Shown here piece by piece: positions 2,231 to 63,365 of a stretch of 64,000 bases of DNA. Numbering within the stretch: the stretch's first letter is position 1; every line of letters begins with the position of its first letter. The translations under genes and the position numbers were made by a program. This DNA comes from an uncultured Actinomycetota bacterium. Lineage in GTDB: Bacteria; Actinomycetota; Actinomycetes; JAHEKZ01. The stretch covers positions 2,217,969-2,281,968 of the forward strand of contig CAWHIJ010000003.1 in NCBI GenBank assembly GCA_963829525.1. Direction: 5' to 3'. The notes under the pieces are model-generated. The model was given only the letters and a program-made list of their open reading frames with translations, was not told the DNA's origin and ran no database searches.

Positions 2231-3112
2231 TCAAGATCGGTTCTTGCGGACTCCCCTGATCACCTCGGGCACCAGGACCACCACCAGAGCGATCGCGAAC
2301 ATGATCGCGCCGACGACGTTCGCCTCAGGTGGGATCCCACGGCCGGCCGCTCCCCAGATGTACATCGGGAACGTTACCGTCTGGCCGCTGGTGAAGTTCG
2401 TGATCACGAAGTCGTCGAACGAGAGGGAGAAGGCCAGCATGGCTCCGGCGACGATGCCGGGCAGCACAAGCGGGAAGGTCACTTTTCGGAACGTGGTCTT
2501 CTCGTCCGCGTAGAGGTCCATGGCTGCCTGTTCCAGACGCGAGTCGAGCCCGGCAATGCGCGCTTTGACTGTCACGACGACGAAGCTGATGCAGAACATG
2601 ATGTGGGCGATGATGATGGTGATTCGACCGAGACTTCCCTCTTGCTGCGCCGCGACGAAGAGGGTCAAAAGCGACGACCCCATGACGACTTCGGGTGTAG
2701 CCATCGGCATGAAGATCAGCAGGTTGGTCCCGCCGCGACCCCGGAAGTTGTGGCGCCCGATCGCAAACGCGATCAACGTGCCCAGCAGAGTCGCAACGAT
2801 AGTACTGACGAGCGCGATCTCAATGCTGATGGTCAGGGCGGCGGTGATCTCAGCGTCACTCCAGACATTTAGCCAAGCAGACGTTGAGAACTCGTTCCAC
2901 ACGTAGTTGTACTTGCCGGCCGGGTTGTTGAAAGAGAAGAGAACTACGACAAACACCGGGATGAACATGAAGAGCAGGGCAAAGGCAGCGAAGAACTGCA
3001 CGAGGTGCAGCCGCACCCAGCGGAAGCCACGAGTAGCCAGGCCCGGCTCGCGGTAGGGCGGAAGCTCGGCGAGCGCCTTTTCGCGCCGCTCCTCAATGGT
3101 TACTGTCGACAT
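2231..3112 (-). CDS. ABC transporter permease, spermidine/putrescine PotC-like
   Basis: 293-aa multi-TM ORF with the permease EAA-type loop (LEQAAMDLYADEKTTFRKVTFPLVLPG). Its start overlaps the stop of the upstream permease gene. Confidence 0.85.
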   Translation of the reverse strand: MSTVTIEERREKALAELPPYREPGLATRGFRWVRLHLVQFFAAFALLFMFIPVFVVVLFSFNNPAGKYNYVWNEFSTSAWLNVWSDAEITAALTISIEIALVSTIVATLLGTLIAFAIGRHNFRGRGGTNLLIFMPMATPEVVMGSSLLTLFVAAQQEGSLGRITIIIAHIMFCISFVVVTVKARIAGLDSRLEQAAMDLYADEKTTFRKVTFPLVLPGIVAGAMLAFSLSFDDFVITNFTSGQTVTFPMYIWGAAGRGIPPEANVVGAIMFAIALVVVLVPEVIRGVRKNRS

Positions 3113-4107
3113 CAGACGAGCTCCTCAGTTCCAGCGCGACGGACGTAGACCGCGACCATCGCCACGATGACGAACATGAGCAGCGTCGAGAGCGCTGCCG
3201 CCAAGGGGTAGTTGCCCGTTGTCTTGAACTGGGCATCGATGGCGTTGCCCATCATCGCATCGCCAGCCGAGCCGAGGAGAGCAGCGTTCACTGGGTCACC
3301 GGCGGCCGGAATGAACGTCAGCAGAGTTCCGGCGACCACTCCGGGGAGTGAGAGCGGGAAGGTGACCTTCCGGAAGGCGGTCCACGCAGATGAGTAGAGA
3401 TCGGTGGCTGCCTCGATCAGGCGGACATCGATCCGCTCCAGACTCGCATAGAGCGGCAGCGTCATGAAGGGCAAGAAGTTGTAGGCCAGGCCAACAATGA
3501 CGGCGAACGGCGTCGCCAAAACTCGATTCGGGTCGGTGATTCCGTCCGGAAAGATCTGCGTCCAACTCGGCCATGAGTCGGGAATGTTCGTCACCGTATG
3601 CAGGAAGTTGAGCAGACCGATGTTCTCCATGAAGGTCACGACCACGCCGTCATCAACCAAGATCGTTTGCCACGCGTTCGTCCTCAACAGGAAGCTGGTG
3701 AAGAAGGGAGCAATCACCAGGACCAGTAGGAAGTTCTTCCATCGGCCCGACTTGAAGGCGATGGTGTAGGCGAGGGGATAGGCGATCAAGAGCGTGAGAA
3801 CTGTCGCGATGAAGGCGTAGATCAGCGACTTCTGGAACACCGGCTTGTCAACCACATACTGGGTCCACGCGTCACTGTAGTTCGAGAACTGCCAGTCGAA
3901 GGTGAAAGAACCGTCGCCGCTGAACGCCGTGCCCGATGACAGCGACATCTTGAGGAGCACGAGAGTGGGCACGATGAAGAAAACCGCCAGCCACAGCATT
4001 CCCGGCGTAAGCAGCGCGTAGGGGGTCCAGCTGTGACCCCCCACTGGCCGAGCAGTGTCATCGGCTGGGGCCTTGGTGCCGGCGCCAGGTACAGGTGCCG
4101 CGCTCAC
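3112..4107 (-). CDS. ABC transporter permease, spermidine/putrescine PotB-like
   Basis: 331-aa multi-TM ORF with LIEAATDLYSSAWTAFRKVTFPLSLPG. GTG start overlaps the ATPase stop (GTGA). Confidence 0.85.
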   Translation of the reverse strand: MSAAPVPGAGTKAPADDTARPVGGHSWTPYALLTPGMLWLAVFFIVPTLVLLKMSLSSGTAFSGDGSFTFDWQFSNYSDAWTQYVVDKPVFQKSLIYAFIATVLTLLIAYPLAYTIAFKSGRWKNFLLVLVIAPFFTSFLLRTNAWQTILVDDGVVVTFMENIGLLNFLHTVTNIPDSWPSWTQIFPDGITDPNRVLATPFAVIVGLAYNFLPFMTLPLYASLERIDVRLIEAATDLYSSAWTAFRKVTFPLSLPGVVAGTLLTFIPAAGDPVNAALLGSAGDAMMGNAIDAQFKTTGNYPLAAALSTLLMFVIVAMVAVYVRRAGTEELV

Positions 4108-5270
4108 TCGTCCCCCTCAACCTTTTCGGCGCCGGCGTCGGCGTCCTGGGTCGCGTCAAGCGCGAAGGTGTGCGCCGGGTTCCAGTGCAGCACCACATCG
4201 TCACCGGTCGAAAGAGGGCCCTCAGTAGACATGTTCTGCGAGAAGACTCCCACTTCCTGCCCCCAGGACAGCTTGACGAGGTACTGAGTCGACACGCCGA
4301 TGTAGCTGGCGTCAGTGACCACCCCGGTGACAGCATTCTCGCCTTCGGTCGGAGTGCCGCTACGGCTGATCTGCATCTTCTCCGGCCGCACCCCCACCCA
4401 CACTTCGTCACGATCGGAGTGCACCCGTGCGGTCGGCATAGCCATGCGTTGGCCCTGGACCTCAAGGAGAGCGTCGCCGCCGCTCTTGCCGGTGAGCTGG
4501 CCTCTAATGAGGTTCGACTGACCGAGGAAGTTGGCGACGAAAGTTGTGACCGGGTTCTCGTAGAGCTCCATGGGCGCGCCCATCTGCTCGATCCGTCCGG
4601 CGTTCATGACCGCAATGGTGTCGGCCATCGTCATGGCCTCTTCCTGGTCGTGGGTGACGTGGACGAAGGTGATACCGACGTCAGTCTGGATGCGCTTGAG
4701 CTCAATCTGCATCTGACGGCGAAGCTTGAGGTCAAGGGCCCCAAGTGGCTCGTCAAGCAGGAGAACCTCCGGCTTGTTGATCAGAGCCCTCGCAACGGCA
4801 ACTCGCTGCTGTTGACCACCGGATAGCTGAGTGGGTTTGCGCCTGGCATAGCTGGAGAGCTCGACGAGCTCGAGCATCGCCTCGACCTCGTTGCGCACGT
4901 CTTTCTTCTTGGACCTCCGCAGCCCGAACGCGACGTTCTCAAAGATGTCCAGGTGCGGGAAGAGCGCGTACGACTGAAAGACTGTGTTCACCGGCCGCTG
5001 GTACGGCTTGCGGTGGGTGACGTCCTCAGCACCTATGACGATCCGACCCTCGCTCGGCTCTTCAAGCCCGGCGACCATCCGCAGCGTGGTTGTCTTCCCA
5101 CACCCCGATGGCCCCAGAAGGGCGAAGAACGACCCCGAAGGGATCGTGAGCGTCAGGTCGTCGACAGCCTTGAAGCTGCCGAAGCGCTTCGTGACATCGA
5201 CGATATGAAGGTCGGCACCGCCCCCGGTCGAGGTGGATTCGGCAGCTGGGGAGGGGGTCTGTTCGCTCAT
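4104..5270 (-). CDS. ABC transporter ATP-binding protein, PotA-like
   Basis: Walker A GPSGCGKTT, signature LSGGQQQRVAVARAL, Walker B LLLDEP, and a C-terminal TOBE-like domain. Start trimmed to ATG 5270 (MSEQTPSP), because the longer ORF would run through the intercistronic hairpin. Confidence 0.9.
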   Translation of the reverse strand: MSEQTPSPAAESTSTGGGADLHIVDVTKRFGSFKAVDDLTLTIPSGSFFALLGPSGCGKTTTLRMVAGLEEPSEGRIVIGAEDVTHRKPYQRPVNTVFQSYALFPHLDIFENVAFGLRRSKKKDVRNEVEAMLELVELSSYARRKPTQLSGGQQQRVAVARALINKPEVLLLDEPLGALDLKLRRQMQIELKRIQTDVGITFVHVTHDQEEAMTMADTIAVMNAGRIEQMGAPMELYENPVTTFVANFLGQSNLIRGQLTGKSGGDALLEVQGQRMAMPTARVHSDRDEVWVGVRPEKMQISRSGTPTEGENAVTGVVTDASYIGVSTQYLVKLSWGQEVGVFSQNMSTEGPLSTGDDVVLHWNPAHTFALDATQDADAGAEKVEGDE

Positions 5271-48049: not shown

Positions 48050-48243
48050 TTCTGGGAAGCCCCTTTCCTCGTCATGCGCGGCAAGTACCGAGAACCTGGT
48101 GGTCTCTCGACACGTCCGAGCGCAGCTCTGGCTGTCTGCTGGTCTCCGGTGCTGGTGGCCGGGCTCCTAGCCCGTGCAGATGATTCACCTGCGCACCACA
48201 CCGCCCCTTCAGGGTGACATCCCGGTGTCGAACAGGTCAAGAA

Positions 48244-48263
48244 GCGGTCACGATCGTGACCGC
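48244..48263 (-). promoter_or_regulatory. Perfect 20-bp palindrome GCGGTCACGATCGTGACCGC (terminator hairpin or operator)
   Basis: Self-complementary over all 20 nt. It lies 28 nt downstream of the mutM stop and about 195 nt upstream of the small coiled-coil gene. Confidence 0.4.
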
Positions 48264-48291
48264 AGACCGCCTGTCACATCACCCGATCGGG

Positions 48292-50752: not shown

Positions 50753-50960
50753 GAGCGGTGTTCTCCTGGCGCACACCGCTCAGCTCGCCAGGTGGCGAGG
50801 TGTTAGGCGTGCCCTTGGGCAGTCCGGACCACGGCCTCGGGGACGAGACCGCTGTCTAGGGTAGCCGAGCACGACCACCGCCCCAAACCGGCATCGGCCC
50901 CCTCCCTGCCTGGATGCTGGCCCGGATGCTGGGGGTGGCAGGTTGTGTGCGGCACCGGGC

Positions 50961-51595: not shown

Positions 51596-52087
51596 TCATG
51601 GAAGTGGGTCCGGCGGTGTCAGCGCCGCCACGAGCGGGGCGAGCACTGGTGGGGGCACCAAGCCCTCGACGTCACCACCGAAGGCGACGACCTCTTTGAT
51701 GAGAGTCGATGACAGGAACGAGTAAAGCGGGTTGGTCGCCACGAAGAGCGTGTCGACCTCGGTGAGCCGGTGGTTCATTTGTGCCATCTGCAGCTCGTAG
51801 TCGAAGTCGCCGACTGCACGCAGTCCCTTGACGATCGCACGGGCGCCTCTTGCCTGGCAGTAGTCCACGAGCAGCCCTGAAAACGTCTCGATCGTGATGT
51901 TGTGGAGGTGGTCCAGCGACTGCGTCAAGAGGTCGATGCGGGTATCGACCTCGAACAACCCACGCTTGTTGGGGTTGACCATCACCCCGACGAAGACCCG
52001 GTCGGCAAGCTTGGAGGCGCGCTCGATGATGTCCACGTGTCCGTTTGTGACCGGGTCAAATGACCCGGGGCACACGACGCTCAGCAC
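51596..52087 (-). CDS. coaD: Pantetheine-phosphate adenylyltransferase
   Basis: CPGSFDPVTNGHVDII motif. 163 aa. Confidence 0.93.
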   Translation of the reverse strand: MLSVVCPGSFDPVTNGHVDIIERASKLADRVFVGVMVNPNKRGLFEVDTRIDLLTQSLDHLHNITIETFSGLLVDYCQARGARAIVKGLRAVGDFDYELQMAQMNHRLTEVDTLFVATNPLYSFLSSTLIKEVVAFGGDVEGLVPPPVLAPLVAALTPPDPLP

Positions 52088-52110
52088 GTCGCGACGCTAT
52101 CACTGGGCGC

Positions 52111-52710
52111 TCAGTCGCTCGCGAGGCCGGCGATCCACAGATGCGCCTCGCCATAGGCGCGGTCGCGGATTGCCTGAAAGCCCGGCGGCCAGGTCCAAAC
52201 CGGGTCGCGGCGGCCTCGCTCCACGACCACGACTGCGCCGTCCGCAAGCAGCTGGTGCCGCCTCAGTCTCTCCAGCACTGAGCTCACCACTGAAGCAGCC
52301 ACAGAGTACGGCGGGTCGCAGAAGACGACGTCGTAACCCGGGCCACGGTGGCTCATGGTGATCCACCGCTCGACGGTGATCGCGTGCACGTGCGCCCTGC
52401 CCCCTGCGGACGAGCCGGTTCCCGAATGCACGCCAGCGCTGACCGCCGATCTGTTGGCCTCGATCACCTCGACCGCTTGGCGGTCTGACTCGACGAGGTC
52501 GACGTGGGAAGCACCCCGGGAGAGTGCCTCCAGACCAAGCGCACCCGATCCCGCATACAGGTCGAGAACAACTGCACCGGAGAAGGGGCCGCGCACCGAC
52601 TCAAGACTGGAGAAGACCGCCTCGCGTGCCCGATCGGAGGTGGGGCGGGTCCCGGCACCGGGGACCGCGAGCCGCCGACCTCTGGCACTGCCTCCGATGA
52701 TTCTTGTCAC
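52111..52710 (-). CDS. rsmD: 16S rRNA (guanine966-N2)-methyltransferase
   Basis: (M)TRIIGGSARGRRLAVPGAGTRPTSDRAREAVFSSL, SAM motif VLDLYAGSGALGLEALSRGA, and DPPY. Confidence 0.92.
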   Translation of the reverse strand: MTRIIGGSARGRRLAVPGAGTRPTSDRAREAVFSSLESVRGPFSGAVVLDLYAGSGALGLEALSRGASHVDLVESDRQAVEVIEANRSAVSAGVHSGTGSSAGGRAHVHAITVERWITMSHRGPGYDVVFCDPPYSVAASVVSSVLERLRRHQLLADGAVVVVERGRRDPVWTWPPGFQAIRDRAYGEAHLWIAGLASD

Positions 52711-52770
52711 GCACTCTCCAGGTACGTCATGGCTTCTCCAGGTACGTCATGGCTTCTCCAGGTACGTCAT
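52707..52770 (-). other. Three consecutive overlapping 7-codon mini-ORFs (MTYLEKP, MTYLEKP, MTYLESA) linking the recG stop to the rsmD start
   Basis: ATG 52770 overlaps the recG TGA. Each mini-ORF TGA overlaps the next ATG (at 52750 and 52730). The last TGA (52709-52707) overlaps rsmD GTG 52710. Each ATG has GGAG 5 nt upstream. Translation has not been demonstrated. Confidence 0.4.
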
Positions 52771-52786
52771 GACTTCTCCAGGTACT
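52716..52786. repeat. Tandem direct repeat, 20-bp unit ctccaggtacgtcatggctt, 3.5 copies
   Basis: Copies at 52716-52735 and 52736-52755 are identical. Copy 52756-52775 has one substitution (g to a). A partial copy spans 52776-52786. Confidence 0.95.
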
Positions 52787-54971
52787 CGGCCTGCTCATCA
52801 GACTCGAGGATGGTGACAGCGGCCTCCAGGTCTGGGTAGGAGGTGAGCGATGCGTCGTCAGCGACCAGTGAGACCGCGTCATCCCTGGCAGCAACGATGA
52901 TCTTCTCGTCGGAGACAGCTCGCAGCACCTTCAGACTCGACCGGACCCCCGACTGGGCTGCGCCAAGCACGTCGCCCTCCCGGCGTTGCTCGAGGTCTAT
53001 CCGAGCCAGCACGAATCCGTCGCTGGTTCCGGCAACCGCTTCAAGCCGCTCGCGAGCCGGACTCTGGTCGGGCAGCTCGGTGACCAGGAGACAGAGGCCG
53101 GCGACGTCACCTCGACCCACACGACCACGGATCTGGTGCAGCTGCGAGATACCAAACCGATCAGCGTCCATGACCACCATGACGCTGGCGTTGGGGACGT
53201 CGACACCGACCTCAATCACGGTGGTGGCGACCAGGACGTCGATCTCGCCGGCGGCGAAACTCGACATCACCGCCTCCTTGACCTCAGACGGAAGCTGTCC
53301 GTGCAGGACGCCCACGCGGCAGTCGGCCAGCGGACCGTCAGCAAGGAATCGAGCGAGGGCGAGCACCGAATGCTGTTCTGGCACAGCGGGCTCTCCAGGC
53401 GCAGCACCACCGGGCCCGTCGAGGTCGTCACCGATCCTCGGGCAGACGACATAGGCCTGCCGCCCCTTGCCGACCTCCTCGGTGATCCGCTCCCAGGCGC
53501 GGTCGAGGTACCTCGGCCGATCCGCGGCCGGAACCACGTGGGTACTGATCTGCTGGCGGCCCTGGGGTAGCTCGGTCAACGTCGAGACGTCGAGGTCGCC
53601 AAAGATCGTCATGGCAACGGTCCGCGGAATCGGAGTTGCCGTCATCACAAGCACATGTGGCGGAGTCTCGGCCTTGGCACGCAGAGCCTCGCGCTGCTCG
53701 ACCCCGAAGCGGTGCTGCTCGTCGATGACGACCAGCCCGAGGTCAAAGAAGTCCACATGCTCCTGCAGCAGCGCATGGGTACCGACCACGATCCCTGCCT
53801 CGCCCGACGCGACGTCGAGCAAGGAGGCTCGACGCTGCGCAGTGGGTTGGCTTCCGGTCAGCAGCCGGACACGAGTTGCTTGAGGGGGTGAGCCGAGCAG
53901 ACCACCGTCGGCCAAGGGCCCCAGCATCGCCGTCATCGTGCGGAAGTGCTGCTGGGCCAACACCTCAGTCGGAGCCAGCAGAGCCGCCTGGCCACCGGCG
54001 TCGACAACGCTGACCATGGCCCGTAGCGCGACAACCGTCTTGCCTGAGCCGACCTCGCCCTGCAGCAACCGGTGCATCGGATGCGTCTGGGCAAGATCGC
54101 CGGCGATCTCTTCGTTGACCTCGCATTGACCTGCGGTAAGAGCGAATGGAAGGCGGGCGTCGAACGCGGTGAGCAGCCCGCCGTCGAGAGGTACCCGCGG
54201 CGTGGCCGCAGTCTCGGCGAGCACCGCTCGTCTTCTGGCGAGGACAGTCTGAAGCACGAGCGCCTCGTCGTACGCCAGCCGCCGACGCGCGGCGTTCACC
54301 TCGTCCATCGAACGCGGGCGGTGCAGCGTTCGATAAGCCTCAGTGCGAGACATCAGTCCCTCGCGCGCCGTGACCGCTGGCGGCGTCAGCTCGGGCAGTT
54401 CGGGCATGGTGTCGAGCAGGACGGAGACGGCCTTCTGGATGCGCCAGGTGGGCAGCTGTGCCGTCGCCGGGTAGATCGGGATCAGGAAGCCGGTGAACGC
54501 GGCAAGGGTGCGCAAGTCACGCTCGATGTCACCGTCTGCGCCGAAGTCGTCGGTCGCACCGAAGATGACGTAGTCAGGGTGGGTAAGTTGTCGGCGTCCC
54601 GCGCGAACGTCAACCGTGCCCGCGAAGAGACCTCGCATGCCCACCTGCAGCTGACGCTCGCGCCATGGCTGGTTGAAGAAGGTCAGCGACAACTTCTGTT
54701 TTCCGTCCGTGACGATGACTTCGCAGATTGTTCCTTTGCGCTGCCGCATGCGGCGCGATGACACCGCTGCAACCTGAGCCAAGACCGTCGCCTGCTCCCC
54801 CACCTGCAGGCGTCCGATGTCGGAGAGCTGCCCGTGTTCGCCATAACGTCGAGGCAGATGGTCGAGGAGGTCACCCACTGTCTGCAGATCCATGGCACCG
54901 AAAGCCTTGGCGGTGGCGCCGCCGACCACGCCCCGCAGTGGCTGGCGCAGCCAATCGGCGGAGTCGGTCAT
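52767..54971 (-). CDS. recG: ATP-dependent DNA helicase RecG
   Basis: 734 aa. Wedge domain plus SF2 helicase motifs (GEVGSGKT, DEQHRFG, MTATPIPRT). Confidence 0.93.
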   Translation of the reverse strand: MTDSADWLRQPLRGVVGGATAKAFGAMDLQTVGDLLDHLPRRYGEHGQLSDIGRLQVGEQATVLAQVAAVSSRRMRQRKGTICEVIVTDGKQKLSLTFFNQPWRERQLQVGMRGLFAGTVDVRAGRRQLTHPDYVIFGATDDFGADGDIERDLRTLAAFTGFLIPIYPATAQLPTWRIQKAVSVLLDTMPELPELTPPAVTAREGLMSRTEAYRTLHRPRSMDEVNAARRRLAYDEALVLQTVLARRRAVLAETAATPRVPLDGGLLTAFDARLPFALTAGQCEVNEEIAGDLAQTHPMHRLLQGEVGSGKTVVALRAMVSVVDAGGQAALLAPTEVLAQQHFRTMTAMLGPLADGGLLGSPPQATRVRLLTGSQPTAQRRASLLDVASGEAGIVVGTHALLQEHVDFFDLGLVVIDEQHRFGVEQREALRAKAETPPHVLVMTATPIPRTVAMTIFGDLDVSTLTELPQGRQQISTHVVPAADRPRYLDRAWERITEEVGKGRQAYVVCPRIGDDLDGPGGAAPGEPAVPEQHSVLALARFLADGPLADCRVGVLHGQLPSEVKEAVMSSFAAGEIDVLVATTVIEVGVDVPNASVMVVMDADRFGISQLHQIRGRVGRGDVAGLCLLVTELPDQSPARERLEAVAGTSDGFVLARIDLEQRREGDVLGAAQSGVRSSLKVLRAVSDEKIIVAARDDAVSLVADDASLTSYPDLEAAVTILESDEQAEYLEKS

Positions 54972-54994
54972 GACGGCGTCACCGAACCTTCATG

Positions 54995-56704
54995 TCACTC
55001 GACGCCGATCAGCAACGGATAGTGCGACTGGCCTCCGTCGTAGACCACGACCTCTACGTCGAGCCGCGTCTGGTGGAGGTGTCGTCGCACCGCCTCGGCC
55101 AAGGGCCGACCGGGCAGCGGATCCTCACCACAAACGAGGGTGACCAGCTCACCTCCCGCGGCCAGCATCCGGTCCGTGACAGCGCAGGCGACCACCTCTG
55201 CGGCGTCACCGAGTACGACGATGTCGTTCTCCACCAAACCGAGGATCTGTCCGGGGTGGCAGATCCCAGCCGACGTCATGGCTTCCCGCTCGGCTCTGGC
55301 TAGCCCTCCGAACCGGGTGGCTGCGGCCGCAGCGGACATGGCGACGACGTCCTCGGTGAACGTTCGCTCGACATCTCGCACGGCCATCGCGGCTAACCCC
55401 TGGACGTCGGCGTGCGTGGGCAGAACGGCGACCTGTGTGCCCTTCTCGCGCAGCTCGACGGCCGCCGCCTCGGCCGCCGCTCGATGATCGTCGTCGTTGG
55501 GCAGCAGCAGAACTTCCTCCGCAGACCCGGCTGAGGCAACGAGCGCAGCCGGGGTGGGACGGTGGCCCGACCCACCGATGACGACCGCTGCCCCAGCCGC
55601 TTCGAAAAGTGCCGCAAGAGCCGGACCCGATGCCACGGCAACAACCTGCCGAGGGCCGCCACGCCCCAGCACGTGATCGCCATGGCCAGTTGGCAGTGTC
55701 GGCGTCATGGTCGATTGCGGGCGGAGCGGGGTGATGCGGATCCGATAGACCCGACCGGCGGCCACGCCGATCTCGACAGCTGGGCCGGCGTCGTCGGTGT
55801 GCACGTGGACGTTCCACAAGCCGTCTCCGCCCACCACGACCACCGATGCCCCGATTTCATCGAGCCGCTGACGAACCTGCGAGGCGGCATCGTCACCAGC
55901 ATCGAGCAGGTACATGACCTCGAAGGCGCCGTCACCGTCGCCGAGGAGCTGAGCGGCGTGGACTGCGGCCGACAGGTGCCCGGGCTCGGGCGCCGGAGCG
56001 TGGCCGAGCCCAAAGCTGCTGAGCACCGCGGCCGCAGATGAGGCGCTCGGGTCGACGGTGGCCCGCAGGGCTTCCAGGATCAGGACCAGCCCCTGACCGC
56101 CGGCATCAACCACCCCCGCTGCCGCGAGCACGGGCAATAGCTCTGGCGTCACCGCCAATGCATCGGCGGCGCCATCGGCAGCTGCCGCGGTCACAGCGGC
56201 TAGGCCGGCGCTCACCTGATCTGTTGCGGCTACGGACGCAGCAGCGGAGACGGTCAAGATTGTCCCTTCAACCGGTCGCGCCACTCCTGTGTAGGCGAGC
56301 TCTGCGGCCCTGACCAATGCGGCCGCCAGCACCGACGCCGCATCGGCCGCTTGGAGTCGTTGGTCCTGCGGCCCGGTGGACTCCGCGAACGTCTCCGCAA
56401 TCCCGCGCAGGAGCTGGGCCACGATGACACCTGAGTTGCCCCGGGCACCGAGCAGGGCGCCACGCGACCAGGCGGCTGCGGCGGCGGCGAGGGGCGGCAC
56501 GCCGTCGGGTCGGCCGGCAATGGCCTCAGCCAGCGCCGTGGATGCTGCCTGCCAGGTCAACAGGAGATTTGTGCCCGTGTCGCCGTCGGGCACCGGGAAG
56601 ACGTTGAGTGCATCGATGTCATAGCGAGCCGCCTGCAGGAGGACCTCACCGCGGCTGGCCCAGTCTGTCAGCTGGTCGCATCCGAACTCTGTCGTCACGC
56701 TCAC
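54995..56704 (-). CDS. DAK2 domain fusion protein (YloV family)
   Basis: NVFPVPDGDTGTNL motif. 569 aa. Conserved neighbour of recG and rpmB. Confidence 0.85.
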   Translation of the reverse strand: MSVTTEFGCDQLTDWASRGEVLLQAARYDIDALNVFPVPDGDTGTNLLLTWQAASTALAEAIAGRPDGVPPLAAAAAAWSRGALLGARGNSGVIVAQLLRGIAETFAESTGPQDQRLQAADAASVLAAALVRAAELAYTGVARPVEGTILTVSAAASVAATDQVSAGLAAVTAAAADGAADALAVTPELLPVLAAAGVVDAGGQGLVLILEALRATVDPSASSAAAVLSSFGLGHAPAPEPGHLSAAVHAAQLLGDGDGAFEVMYLLDAGDDAASQVRQRLDEIGASVVVVGGDGLWNVHVHTDDAGPAVEIGVAAGRVYRIRITPLRPQSTMTPTLPTGHGDHVLGRGGPRQVVAVASGPALAALFEAAGAAVVIGGSGHRPTPAALVASAGSAEEVLLLPNDDDHRAAAEAAAVELREKGTQVAVLPTHADVQGLAAMAVRDVERTFTEDVVAMSAAAAATRFGGLARAEREAMTSAGICHPGQILGLVENDIVVLGDAAEVVACAVTDRMLAAGGELVTLVCGEDPLPGRPLAEAVRRHLHQTRLDVEVVVYDGGQSHYPLLIGVE

Positions 56705-57152: not shown

Positions 57153-58157
57153 TTACCCGTCGAAGTGCCGGTGGCCCGACGGTCCGCTCCACTGCTCCCC
57201 GTCGACGGTGACTAGATGCTCCCCTTGAGGGTCAGCCGATGATCGTGCGCGCTCCTTCACGCTCCCGATTCGGGTGAACCCCTCTGGTAGCAGAGCGTCG
57301 GCAGCAAACGCTCCCACCAGGGCGTGGTCGTGGCCTCCGGTCAGGACCCATGGCAGGGGATCACTTCCGTAGGCAGCCGCCACCGTCGCCACCGGATCAC
57401 CGATGGCGACGAGGTTGCTCTCGATGTCGATACGCACGTCACTGCTGACGGCGATGTGCCCAAGGTCAGCAACGAGGCCATCACTGACGTCGCACATCGC
57501 GTGCACCCCTGAAGCCGCAGCACCCAAGGCCGCCTCGTACGGGACCTCAGGGCGACGGTAGGCCTCGACAAGTGCCCGCGGCGACCGAAAGCCGCGAGTC
57601 AGCACGGCCAGTCCGGCTTCGGCCCATCCCAGACGACCGGCGACGGCGACCTGGTCCCCAGCAACGGCTCCGCTGCGCAACACAGGAGCTCGTCCCCCGA
57701 GCCCCCCGATCCCTGTCACCGTCACCGAGATGGTCTCTCCTCCGGACAGGTCGCCCCCGACGACCGACGCCCCCGTGAGCGCTGCCTCGTCGCGCAGTCC
57801 GTCGGCGATCCGAAGCACCCAAGCGGCATCAGTCGAACGAGGAGCGGTCAGGGCCACCACAAGCGCCACCGGGCTCGCACCCATCGATACGAGGTCTGCC
57901 AGGCTCGCAGCAGCGGCTCGCCTGCCGATGTCGTCGGCGCCCGACCAGTCTGTCCGGAAGTGCACTCCGGCCACCAGGACGTCGGTCGTGAGCACGATGG
58001 GCGTGTGGTCGACCAGCACAACGGCGGCGTCGTCGCCTGGCGGCACCGAGACCTCCGCACCCTGGGGCAGACGGCGGGTAATGGCCTCGATCAAGGCGAA
58101 CTCGCCCCTGCCCCCGATCGAGTCGGCAGGGTTCTGGGCTGCTGAGGGGTCGCTCAT
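57153..58157 (-). CDS. thiL: Thiamine-monophosphate kinase
   Basis: 334 aa. PurM-like fold motifs (GEFALIEAI, GDDAAV, DVSDGL). Confidence 0.9.
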   Translation of the reverse strand: MSDPSAAQNPADSIGGRGEFALIEAITRRLPQGAEVSVPPGDDAAVVLVDHTPIVLTTDVLVAGVHFRTDWSGADDIGRRAAAASLADLVSMGASPVALVVALTAPRSTDAAWVLRIADGLRDEAALTGASVVGGDLSGGETISVTVTGIGGLGGRAPVLRSGAVAGDQVAVAGRLGWAEAGLAVLTRGFRSPRALVEAYRRPEVPYEAALGAAASGVHAMCDVSDGLVADLGHIAVSSDVRIDIESNLVAIGDPVATVAAAYGSDPLPWVLTGGHDHALVGAFAADALLPEGFTRIGSVKERARSSADPQGEHLVTVDGEQWSGPSGHRHFDG

Positions 58158-62912: not shown

Positions 62913-63365
62913 CTAGCGCTTACGCGCCGTCTTCTTGGCTGCTGTCTTGCGAGCCGGGGCCTTCTTGGCAGCGGTCTTGCGGACCGGGGCCTTCTTGGCA
63001 GCGGTCTTGCGAGCGGGCGCCTTCTTGGCGGTGGCCTTCTTTGTCGTCTTCTTGGCAGCGGCCTTCTTGGCCGGAGCGGCAAGCTTCTTCTCGCCGTTCA
63101 CGACAGCCTTGAACTCCGCACCCGCTGTGAACTTGGGAACGGACTTCTTCTTGGTCTTGACGGTAGCGCCGGTCTGCGGGTTACGGGCAGTGCCAGCGGG
63201 ACGGATGCGACGCTCGAACTTGCCGAAACCGGTGATCGCGACGGCCTCACCCTTGGCCACCTGGCGAGTGATCGTGCCGATCACCGCCTCGAGCGCGTTG
63301 TGGGCAGCGCGGCGGTTCCCGTCGAACTGGCCGGCGAGTTCATCAATCAACTGAGCCTTGTTCAC
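62913..63365 (-). CDS. hup: HU family nucleoid protein with a Lys/Ala-rich C-terminal tail (HupB/Hlp type)
   Basis: HU fold at the N-terminus (MNKAQLIDELAGQF ... RNPQTGATVK), followed by an AAKKAPARKT repeat tail. Confidence 0.92.
   Translation of the reverse strand: MNKAQLIDELAGQFDGNRRAAHNALEAVIGTITRQVAKGEAVAITGFGKFERRIRPAGTARNPQTGATVKTKKKSVPKFTAGAEFKAVVNGEKKLAAPAKKAAAKKTTKKATAKKAPARKTAAKKAPVRKTAAKKAPARKTAAKKTARKR
62931..63050. repeat. About 4 tandem 30-bp repeats encoding the AAKKAP(A/V)RKT decapeptide of the HU tail
   Basis: cttcttggc recurs at 62931, 62961, 62991 and 63021. Confidence 0.85.

Follow-up and report, generated by a model that had tools for sequence, protein, structure and literature searches.

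The junction between recG and rsmD on the minus strand of a 64,000-nucleotide stretch of contig CAWHIJ010000003.1 from an uncultured Actinomycetota bacterium (the window, by which the whole stretch is meant) is occupied by a tandem array of four 20-nt units, which joins the stop codon of recG to the GTG start codon of rsmD through three overlapping open reading frames (ORFs) of seven codons each. The array is read here, with a probability of roughly 0.6, as a heritable 20-bp variable-number tandem repeat (VNTR) that would have arisen by tandem duplication of an NTGA overlap between the two genes, in which the TGA stop of the upstream gene overlaps the NTG start of the downstream gene, and that would since have changed in unit number by slippage, with the translational coupling of the flanking genes kept and with a near-neutral effect.

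On the minus strand, the junction reads ...GCCGA-GTACCTGGAGAAGTCATGAC-GTACCTGGAGAAGCCATGAC-GTACCTGGAGAAGCCATGAC-GTACCTGGAGAGTGCGTGAC-AAGAATC..., and the 80-nt array (52785..52706) spans the distance from the last codons of recG (EYLEKS and stop) to the rsmD GTG. The first unit (52785..52766, GTACCTGGAGAAGTCATGAC) is itself the 3' end of recG together with its stop, the second (52765..52746) and the third (52745..52726) are both GTACCTGGAGAAGCCATGAC, and the fourth (52725..52706, GTACCTGGAGAGTGCGTGAC) is a diverged terminal unit, the last 5 nt of which form the start of rsmD. The stop/start overlaps ATGA, ATGA, ATGA and GTGA lie at 52770, 52750, 52730 and 52710, respectively, and every one of the four starts, i.e. 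those of the three mini-ORFs and that of rsmD, is preceded at a distance of 5 nt by the motif GGAG. The ATG of mini-ORF 1 (52747..52770, minus strand; MTYLEKP, encoded by ATG ACG TAC CTG GAG AAG CCA TGA; GGAG at 52779..52776) overlaps the recG TGA, that of mini-ORF 2 (52727..52750, minus strand; also MTYLEKP; GGAG at 52759..52756) overlaps the TGA of mini-ORF 1, and that of mini-ORF 3 (52707..52730, minus strand; MTYLESA; GGAG at 52739..52736) overlaps the TGA of mini-ORF 2, while its own TGA overlaps the rsmD GTG. The repeat, its coordinates, the mini-ORFs, the GGAG positions and the rsmD start had been proposed in an earlier, sequence-only reading of this DNA, and all of them proved to be correct on the minus-strand sequence.

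Both ends of the chain belong to recognizable genes. RecG (52767..54971, minus strand; 734 amino acids) matches NCBIfam NF008167 with 1014.8 bits (cut-off 995) over profile positions 4–744 of 744 and ends in AEYLEKS (the last codons being GAG TAC CTG GAG AAG TCA TGA, with the TGA at 52769..52767). EYLEK[GTSA] followed by the stop is the usual C-terminus of RecG in 80 actinomycete genomes; the EYLEKS end is therefore family-typical and the first TGA is the true recG stop. RsmD (52111..52710, minus strand; 199 amino acids) starts with the GTG at 52710, is preceded by GGAG at 52719..52716, begins with MTRIIGG and matches TIGR00095 with 135.2 bits (cut-off 117.5); the 199-residue protein is identical to database protein P0001, and its homologues begin with MTRI[IV].

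Motif, repeat and ORF-chain searches covered the 64-kb window. Tandem Repeats Finder reported the array at 52715–52785 as 3.5 copies of a 20-nt period with 98% matches; its score of 135 is the second highest within the window. At up to three mismatches, the 20-nt unit occurs three times in the window, always within the array, and the diverged fourth unit differs from it by four mismatches; no further copy was found elsewhere in the window at this threshold, and 100 dinucleotide-preserving shuffles of the sequence gave 0 matches.

The unit number varies among close relatives. Exact-protein look-ups with the RsmD and RecG of the window retrieved no match, and the relatives were reached through the 90%-identity RsmD cluster, which contains two other members. 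Contigs from four independent assemblies, 93–96% identical to the window over 2–6.6 kb, were compared: in three of them (L081, L082 and L083) the array has two units and reads ...AAGTCGTGAC GTACCTGGAGAGTGTGTGAC, with a single mini-ORF, VTYLESV, and the fourth (L084) has three units with the mini-ORFs MTYLEKS and MTYLESV. With the four units of the window, counts of 2, 3 and 4 are thus found in assemblies 93–96% identical at the locus, a series that, judged by this identity, would lie within strains of the same species or of sister species. A T-to-C change is common to units 2 and 3 of the window and absent from unit 1, which argues that the array grew stepwise. The head-to-tail copies of high identity and the differences in copy number between orthologous loci of close relatives are those of a VNTR or minisatellite, and the earlier proposal of a repeat of variable copy number is thereby upheld.

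An assembly or sequencing artefact in the source genome, i.e. a stutter, is scarcely credible, as the sequence-only reading had also held. The same repeat is present with two, three or at least two units in eight other independent lineages (ENA, Logan, JGI and NCBI assemblies), including independent assemblies with two and with three units, and the substitutions between units are themselves duplicated. The array is just 80 nt long, a length that typical short reads would span. On these comparisons an assembly artefact appears to be effectively excluded. No match was obtained when metagenomes were scanned for the pattern of two adjacent units, and scanning them by protein yielded a single close locus, L085, which ends before the junction.

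More distant relatives, which were fetched via their RsmD proteins, extend the series. L137 (GCA_027118455.1), with an RsmD 77% identical to that of the window, has two units, the second of which is diverged (GTACTCGGAGATCTTGTGAC; VTYSEIL); L141 (76%) has at least two, its contig beginning inside the array; L144 (71%) has three near-identical units; and L145 (66%) has three units with the mini-ORFs MTYLEKS and MMHLVKS. L142 and L143 (74%) have a 46-nt spacer that is read by one 17-codon ORF (VTYREVVQLSTTHPETR and stop), which overlaps the recG stop at one end and the rsmD start at the other, each through GTGA, and the last 20 nt of this spacer are still recognizable as the terminal unit. In a neighbour-joining tree of RsmD, the carriers of the 20-nt repeat form one clade, which down to an RsmD identity of 66% has either two or three units or a degenerate form that goes back to the same duplication. 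The stop/start phasing is kept in every relative examined within this clade, whereas a change in copy number with loss of the phasing was what the sequence-only reading had regarded as evidence against itself. No member has reverted to one unit.

Outside the clade, the two genes are joined by direct overlaps (GTGA in L087, TTGA in L052 and ATGA in L096) or separated by ordinary spacers. The sister lineage L146 (GCA_024644435.1; RsmD 63%) is without the 20-nt repeat. At positions 1485–1510 of its locus, L146 has the rsmD start in triplicate as 8-nt units, GTGACAGG GTGACAGG GTGACCAGG, in which two VTG mini-ORFs relay into rsmD. A scan of genome contigs with the C-terminal half of RecG found nothing closer than 68% identity and served as an outgroup survey.

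The direct NTGA overlap, which is seen only in lineages outside the clade, is proposed as the ancestral state. An ancestral recG-stop/rsmD-start overlap of the form ...GCCGA[GTACCTGGAGAAGTCrTGAC]rAGrATC... would have undergone one 20-nt tandem duplication (the bracketed segment), and this duplication would be old and inherited by the whole clade. The microhomology flanking the unit amounts to 1 nt only; recurrent duplication at identical boundaries is therefore unlikely, which argues for a single origin. The rsmD-proximal copy, freed from the coding constraint of recG, would then have diverged except at GGAG and GTGAC, and lineage-specific replication slippage of the upstream copies would later have altered the unit number.

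Insertion of a mobile interspersed element at the rsmD start codon, in the manner of the MIRUs (mycobacterial interspersed repetitive units), would be another source of such an array, since MIRUs insert at start codons, have an ORF inside them that is coupled at −4 nt, and differ in their number of copies (PMC12548453). However, the first 15 nt of the unit are the conserved recG tail (YLEKS) and its last 5 nt are the start of rsmD, which points to local duplication; no other copy lies in the window, the metagenome contig scan for two adjacent units found none, and the unit of 20 nt compares with 53–77 bp for MIRUs (PMC4213456). Such an insertion is hence given hardly any credence.

One further source of the repeated sequence was considered. 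In L071 (Longivirga aurantiaca), at positions 4135–4160, recG ends in ...CTGGAGAAGTCATGACGTAC, 20 nt of which are identical to the first junction of the window; the ATG there starts an alpha/beta-hydrolase-like gene (MTYDET...) and not a mini-ORF, and this gene, together with a candidate toxin–antitoxin-like pair, is inserted ahead of rsmD. The idea that ATGACGTAC is a relic of another downstream gene, such as this alpha/beta-hydrolase-like ORF with its MTY start, was rejected, as the duplication model explains every base. Only 4–5 nt are common to L071 and the window beyond coding constraint, and the identity beyond the conserved recG tail is probably a coincidence.

The sequence-only reading had pointed to three elements carried by each copy, GGAG, start and overlapping stop, but their regular phasing is not independent evidence of function. 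A start in copy n reads copy n + 1 in a frame shifted by the period, and with a period of 20 nt this frame is that of recG, with its stop on the next NTGA; with a 20-nt unit (−1 modulo 3) that contains NTGA, the relay phasing is therefore automatic. Any NTGA-containing unit with a period not divisible by 3 yields a relay, whereas a period divisible by 3 extends the N-terminus of RsmD, and a 10-nt array in L137, described below, forms a relay at every second unit. The phasing of identical copies is no evidence of design.

Several observations weigh against a functional relay. As the phasing is automatic for identical copies, it is not in itself evidence of design. Mini-ORFs bounded by two NTGA overlaps are not enriched in the window (145 observed, compared with 176 ± 13 in first-order Markov simulations), and chains of at least three links number 4, with about 5 expected per 64 kb by chance. 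In L146 the chain from recG breaks 4 nt ahead of the 8-nt repeat, and the GGAG of the terminal unit is lost in L145 (GGTC) and L141 (GGAT). The rsmD gene has its own GGAG at a good spacing and could initiate independently, and both translation of the mini-ORFs and a dependence of rsmD on them are putative. The evidence for selection is weak, as it consists of few events, namely the in-frame 30-nt expansion in L142 and the GGAG in six of eight lineages. The relay motif as a statistically unusual feature was accordingly rejected, with mini-ORF and chain counts that are not above simulation; of the four chains in the window, two are chance products without a tie to the ends of genes, one lying after fpg (48282..48238) and the other antisense (57208..57276).

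What is not automatic is that the chain at this junction joins a genuine stop to a genuine start. In an alignment of eight terminal units, all have GTGAC and six have GGAG, while the 4–5 nt between the two motifs vary freely (AGTGC, AGTGT, ATCTT, ACCAG and AAGTC). The 30 extra nucleotides of L142 keep the frame and contain no stop. In all members of the clade recG has TCA or TCG as its final codon, which gives an ATG or a GTG start, and these two codons account for 44% of the Ser codons in the genes of the window. The mini-peptides themselves are not conserved (MTYLEKP, MTYSEIL, MTDLDKS and MMHLVKS). These features, together with the absence of any reversion to one unit, suggest that the translation signals, and not the peptide, may be under constraint, although each point is weak because the independent events are few and the lineages related. 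A conserved three-step NTGA relay at the yloV–recG junction, described below, is likewise weak evidence of selection on coupling.

In the mechanism proposed for the duplicated junction, each unit would provide a Shine–Dalgarno (SD)-like GGAG derived from the Leu-Glu codons of recG, an NTG start 5 nt later and a TGA overlapping a start. Ribosomes finishing recG, or 30S subunits that bind at one or another GGAG-N5-NTG module, would translate a seven-codon ORF, terminate on the TGA that overlaps the next start and reinitiate there, and these steps would be repeated up to the rsmD GTG. The duplication would thus leave the translational coupling from recG to rsmD, and on to coaD, intact, and the array would survive as the kind of junction duplication that leaves coupling unbroken. 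This mechanism is proposed because the −4 nt (NTGA) spacing is established as efficient for translational coupling and is the commonest arrangement (PMC12548453). The layout at the junction agrees with it, in that the upstream stop overlaps the downstream start with no terminator or promoter match between the genes. The output of rsmD and coaD would most probably change little, or only modestly, with the unit number.

It is also conceivable, though rather unlikely, that the array is an inert spacer, with mini-ORFs that are not meaningfully translated, with rsmD initiating at its own GGAG-N5-GTG and with the relay appearance being purely geometric. The SD-like GGAG retained by rsmD (52719..52716), the automatic phasing of any period not divisible by 3, the frequency of double-NTGA ORFs and chains by chance and the unconserved mini-peptides would all agree with this. 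However, every unit offers the same GGAG-N5-NTG as rsmD itself, and if the rsmD site is used, then the upstream copies should be used too. Coupling by NTGA at −4 nt is well supported (PMC12548453), in L142 a single ORF still bridges the diverged 46-nt spacer exactly, and recG, the ATG of which has no preceding GGAG or SD-like motif, is itself reached by a conserved NTGA relay.

The 20-bp periodicity, with direct repeats two helical turns apart, might instead indicate an element acting at the DNA level, which would either bind a regulator or contain an internal promoter for rsmD and coaD, and the MIRU region of senX3–regX3 does have promoter activity (PMC4213456). This is nevertheless very improbable, as the junction has no σ70-like promoter match, its sequence is fully explained by coding and translation signals, and in the terminal units only the translation signals have escaped divergence. 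The junction gave no match to a promoter, a terminator or an Rfam family and is not predicted to fold into a stable RNA structure (z = +0.53); with all of these negative, no other function is offered.

The neighbouring junctions of the operon contain further NTGA relays. Between yloV and recG (54968..54998, minus strand), the sequence GTGA C ATGA AGGTTCG GTGA CGCCGTC ATGA, flanked by GTCGA...CC, encodes VT, MKVR and VTPS, each followed by a stop, and forms an uninterrupted relay from the yloV stop (54997..54995) to the recG ATG (54971). L142 keeps every NTGA of this relay, while six of the remaining bases in the spacer are changed (the C following the first GTGA, and those of GTTCG compared with ACAGA). 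In L137 the yloV–recG spacer (83–143) is a sixfold 10-nt repeat of GATGAAGGCA, the chain of which still ends on the recG ATGA, and its rsmD–coaD junction (3106–3155) contains 2.9 copies of a 17-nt repeat, AGCGCCCAGTGATAGCC, which includes GTGA and forms a mini-ORF relay; the window has single copies of both GATGAAGGCA and AGCGCCCAGTGATAGCC. Junction-derived arrays occur at four places: the 20-nt repeat between recG and rsmD, the 10 nt × 6 before recG and the 17 nt × 2.9 before coaD in a relative, and the 8 nt × 3 at the rsmD start in the sister lineage. Short NTGA-containing junction repeats therefore recur in this group, a recurrence that fits either a mutational tendency combined with a filter that preserves coupling or an active use of such arrays.

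If the arrays are actively used, NTGA repeats that derive from gene junctions could form a class of translational relay that is selected and recurs in this clade, acting as slippage-adjustable rheostats for the yloV–recG–rsmD–coaD stoichiometry; we regard this as doubtful, but if true, a MIRU-like solution would have evolved without a mobile element. A related and equally tentative proposal concerns the 20-nt array itself, which would be an adaptive rheostat, a contingency-like locus in which slippage reversibly sets the ratio of RsmD and CoaD to RecG and in which variability is selected, either because each relay step loses ribosomes or because each extra GGAG and ATG recruits more of them. 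The unit number indeed differs among near-identical strains, the layout persists across the clade down to 66% RsmD identity with no one-unit reversion, and NTGA repeats occur at neighbouring junctions (those of 10 nt × 6 and 17 nt × 2.9 in L137 and of 8 nt × 3 in L146). However, there are only two to four copies, most lineages have two or three with a diverged, slippage-resistant terminal unit, and the persistence is also explained by neutrality after the copies diverge. We know of no reason for a variable dosage of rsmD, which encodes a housekeeping rRNA methyltransferase. The sequence-only reading had suggested that the repeat may tune rsmD and coaD; the data are explained no less well by a near-neutral repeat with coupling preserved.

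Among known systems, the MIRUs offer the closest comparison, and MIRU-VNTRs were reportedly described by Supply and colleagues in 1997 (summarized in PMC12548453 and PMC4213456). MIRUs insert at start codons, where an internal ORF coupled at −4 nt minimizes the impact on expression, as described in a 2025 review (PMC12548453), and the units at senX3–regX3 measure 77 and 53 bp and differ in number between strains (PMC4213456). Like these, the array consists of tandem units between co-oriented genes of an operon, with a small ORF that overlaps the flanking stop and start at −4 nt and with a polymorphic copy number, which appears to be tolerated as long as coupling is kept. In contrast, MIRUs have units of about 40–100 bp (53–77 bp in the example above), occupy many loci and are apparently mobile, whereas the array has a 20-nt unit of local recG/rsmD origin that is not interspersed within the 64-kb window, and its carriers are uncultured non-mycobacterial actinomycetes. 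Of the MIRU architecture put forward in the sequence-only reading, the small ORFs overlapping stop and start within an operon (PMC12548453) thus remain, while membership, in view of the unit length, the local origin and the lack of another copy in the window, does not: the array resembles MIRUs in function but is not a member of the MIRU family.

All four junctions of the array are NTGA overlaps with an upstream GGAG, as in NTGA-coupled gene pairs (PMC12548453), but the known cases link two genes directly, whereas the array places up to three seven-codon ORFs in series, in polymorphic number. Short upstream ORFs that deliver ribosomes are represented by the mycobacterial small ORFs of Shell et al. 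(2015), cited in PMC12548453. As in these, the position and frame of the mini-ORFs are conserved and not the peptide, which suggests a ribosome-delivery role, but the mini-ORFs of the array copy a gene junction and lie between coupled genes and not at the 5' end of a transcript. Literature searches returned no description of tandem repeats derived from a stop/start overlap. At contingency loci, slippage-prone repeats switch genes by frameshift or by promoter spacing; the array likewise is a slippage-prone repeat with a copy number that differs among close strains, but the two flanking frames and the geometry of the coupling are preserved whatever the copy number.

How ribosomes are handed over between overlapping genes is unsettled, with 70S or 30S scanning, reinitiation and RNA unfolding under discussion, and so is the efficiency of the process (PMC12548453). 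The junctions compared here form a natural allelic series, near-identical except for one, two or three seven-codon relay ORFs and, in one lineage, a 17-codon ORF, which could be used for measuring the efficiency of reinitiation per step. They also show that a MIRU-like repeat that preserves coupling can arise from a gene junction without a mobile element, and the array can serve as a strain-typing marker for this group of uncultured actinomycetes. Even if neutral, the array would illustrate the filter on those junction duplications that operons tolerate.

The gene order yloV–recG–rsmD–coaD is common to the relatives. The first gene of the block is a yloV/fakA-like gene with a DAK2 domain (54995..56704, minus strand; TIGR03599 YloV, 418.1 bits), and coaD (51596..52087, minus strand; TIGR01510, 183.1 bits) is the next gene of the operon after rsmD, starting 23 nt past the rsmD stop. 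This 23-nt spacer (52088..52110, minus strand; GCGCCCAGTGATAGCGTCGCGAC), just before which the RsmD of the window stops, resembles what is left of a C-terminal tail of RsmD (...PSDSVAPC and stop); in L145, L146 and many homologues the tail is still part of the coding sequence, and rsmD there overlaps the coaD start (GTGCTGA). In the three-unit strain L084, the JGI call for rsmD (1177–1662; 161 amino acids) starts 38 codons downstream; evidently the start assigned to rsmD by automatic gene calling is not consistent at the recG–rsmD junction.

Two other repeats were noted in the window. A 30-nt repeat at 62931..63029 (3.3 copies; Tandem Repeats Finder score 156) lies inside a minus-strand ORF and looks like an in-frame coding repeat rich in Ala and Lys codons. 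A second intergenic VNTR, GACCCAGCATCC(C), is located at 50908..50932, downstream of a 184-residue gene, and has about two copies in the window and about five in close relatives (L081, 4761–4823; L084, 2823–2882).

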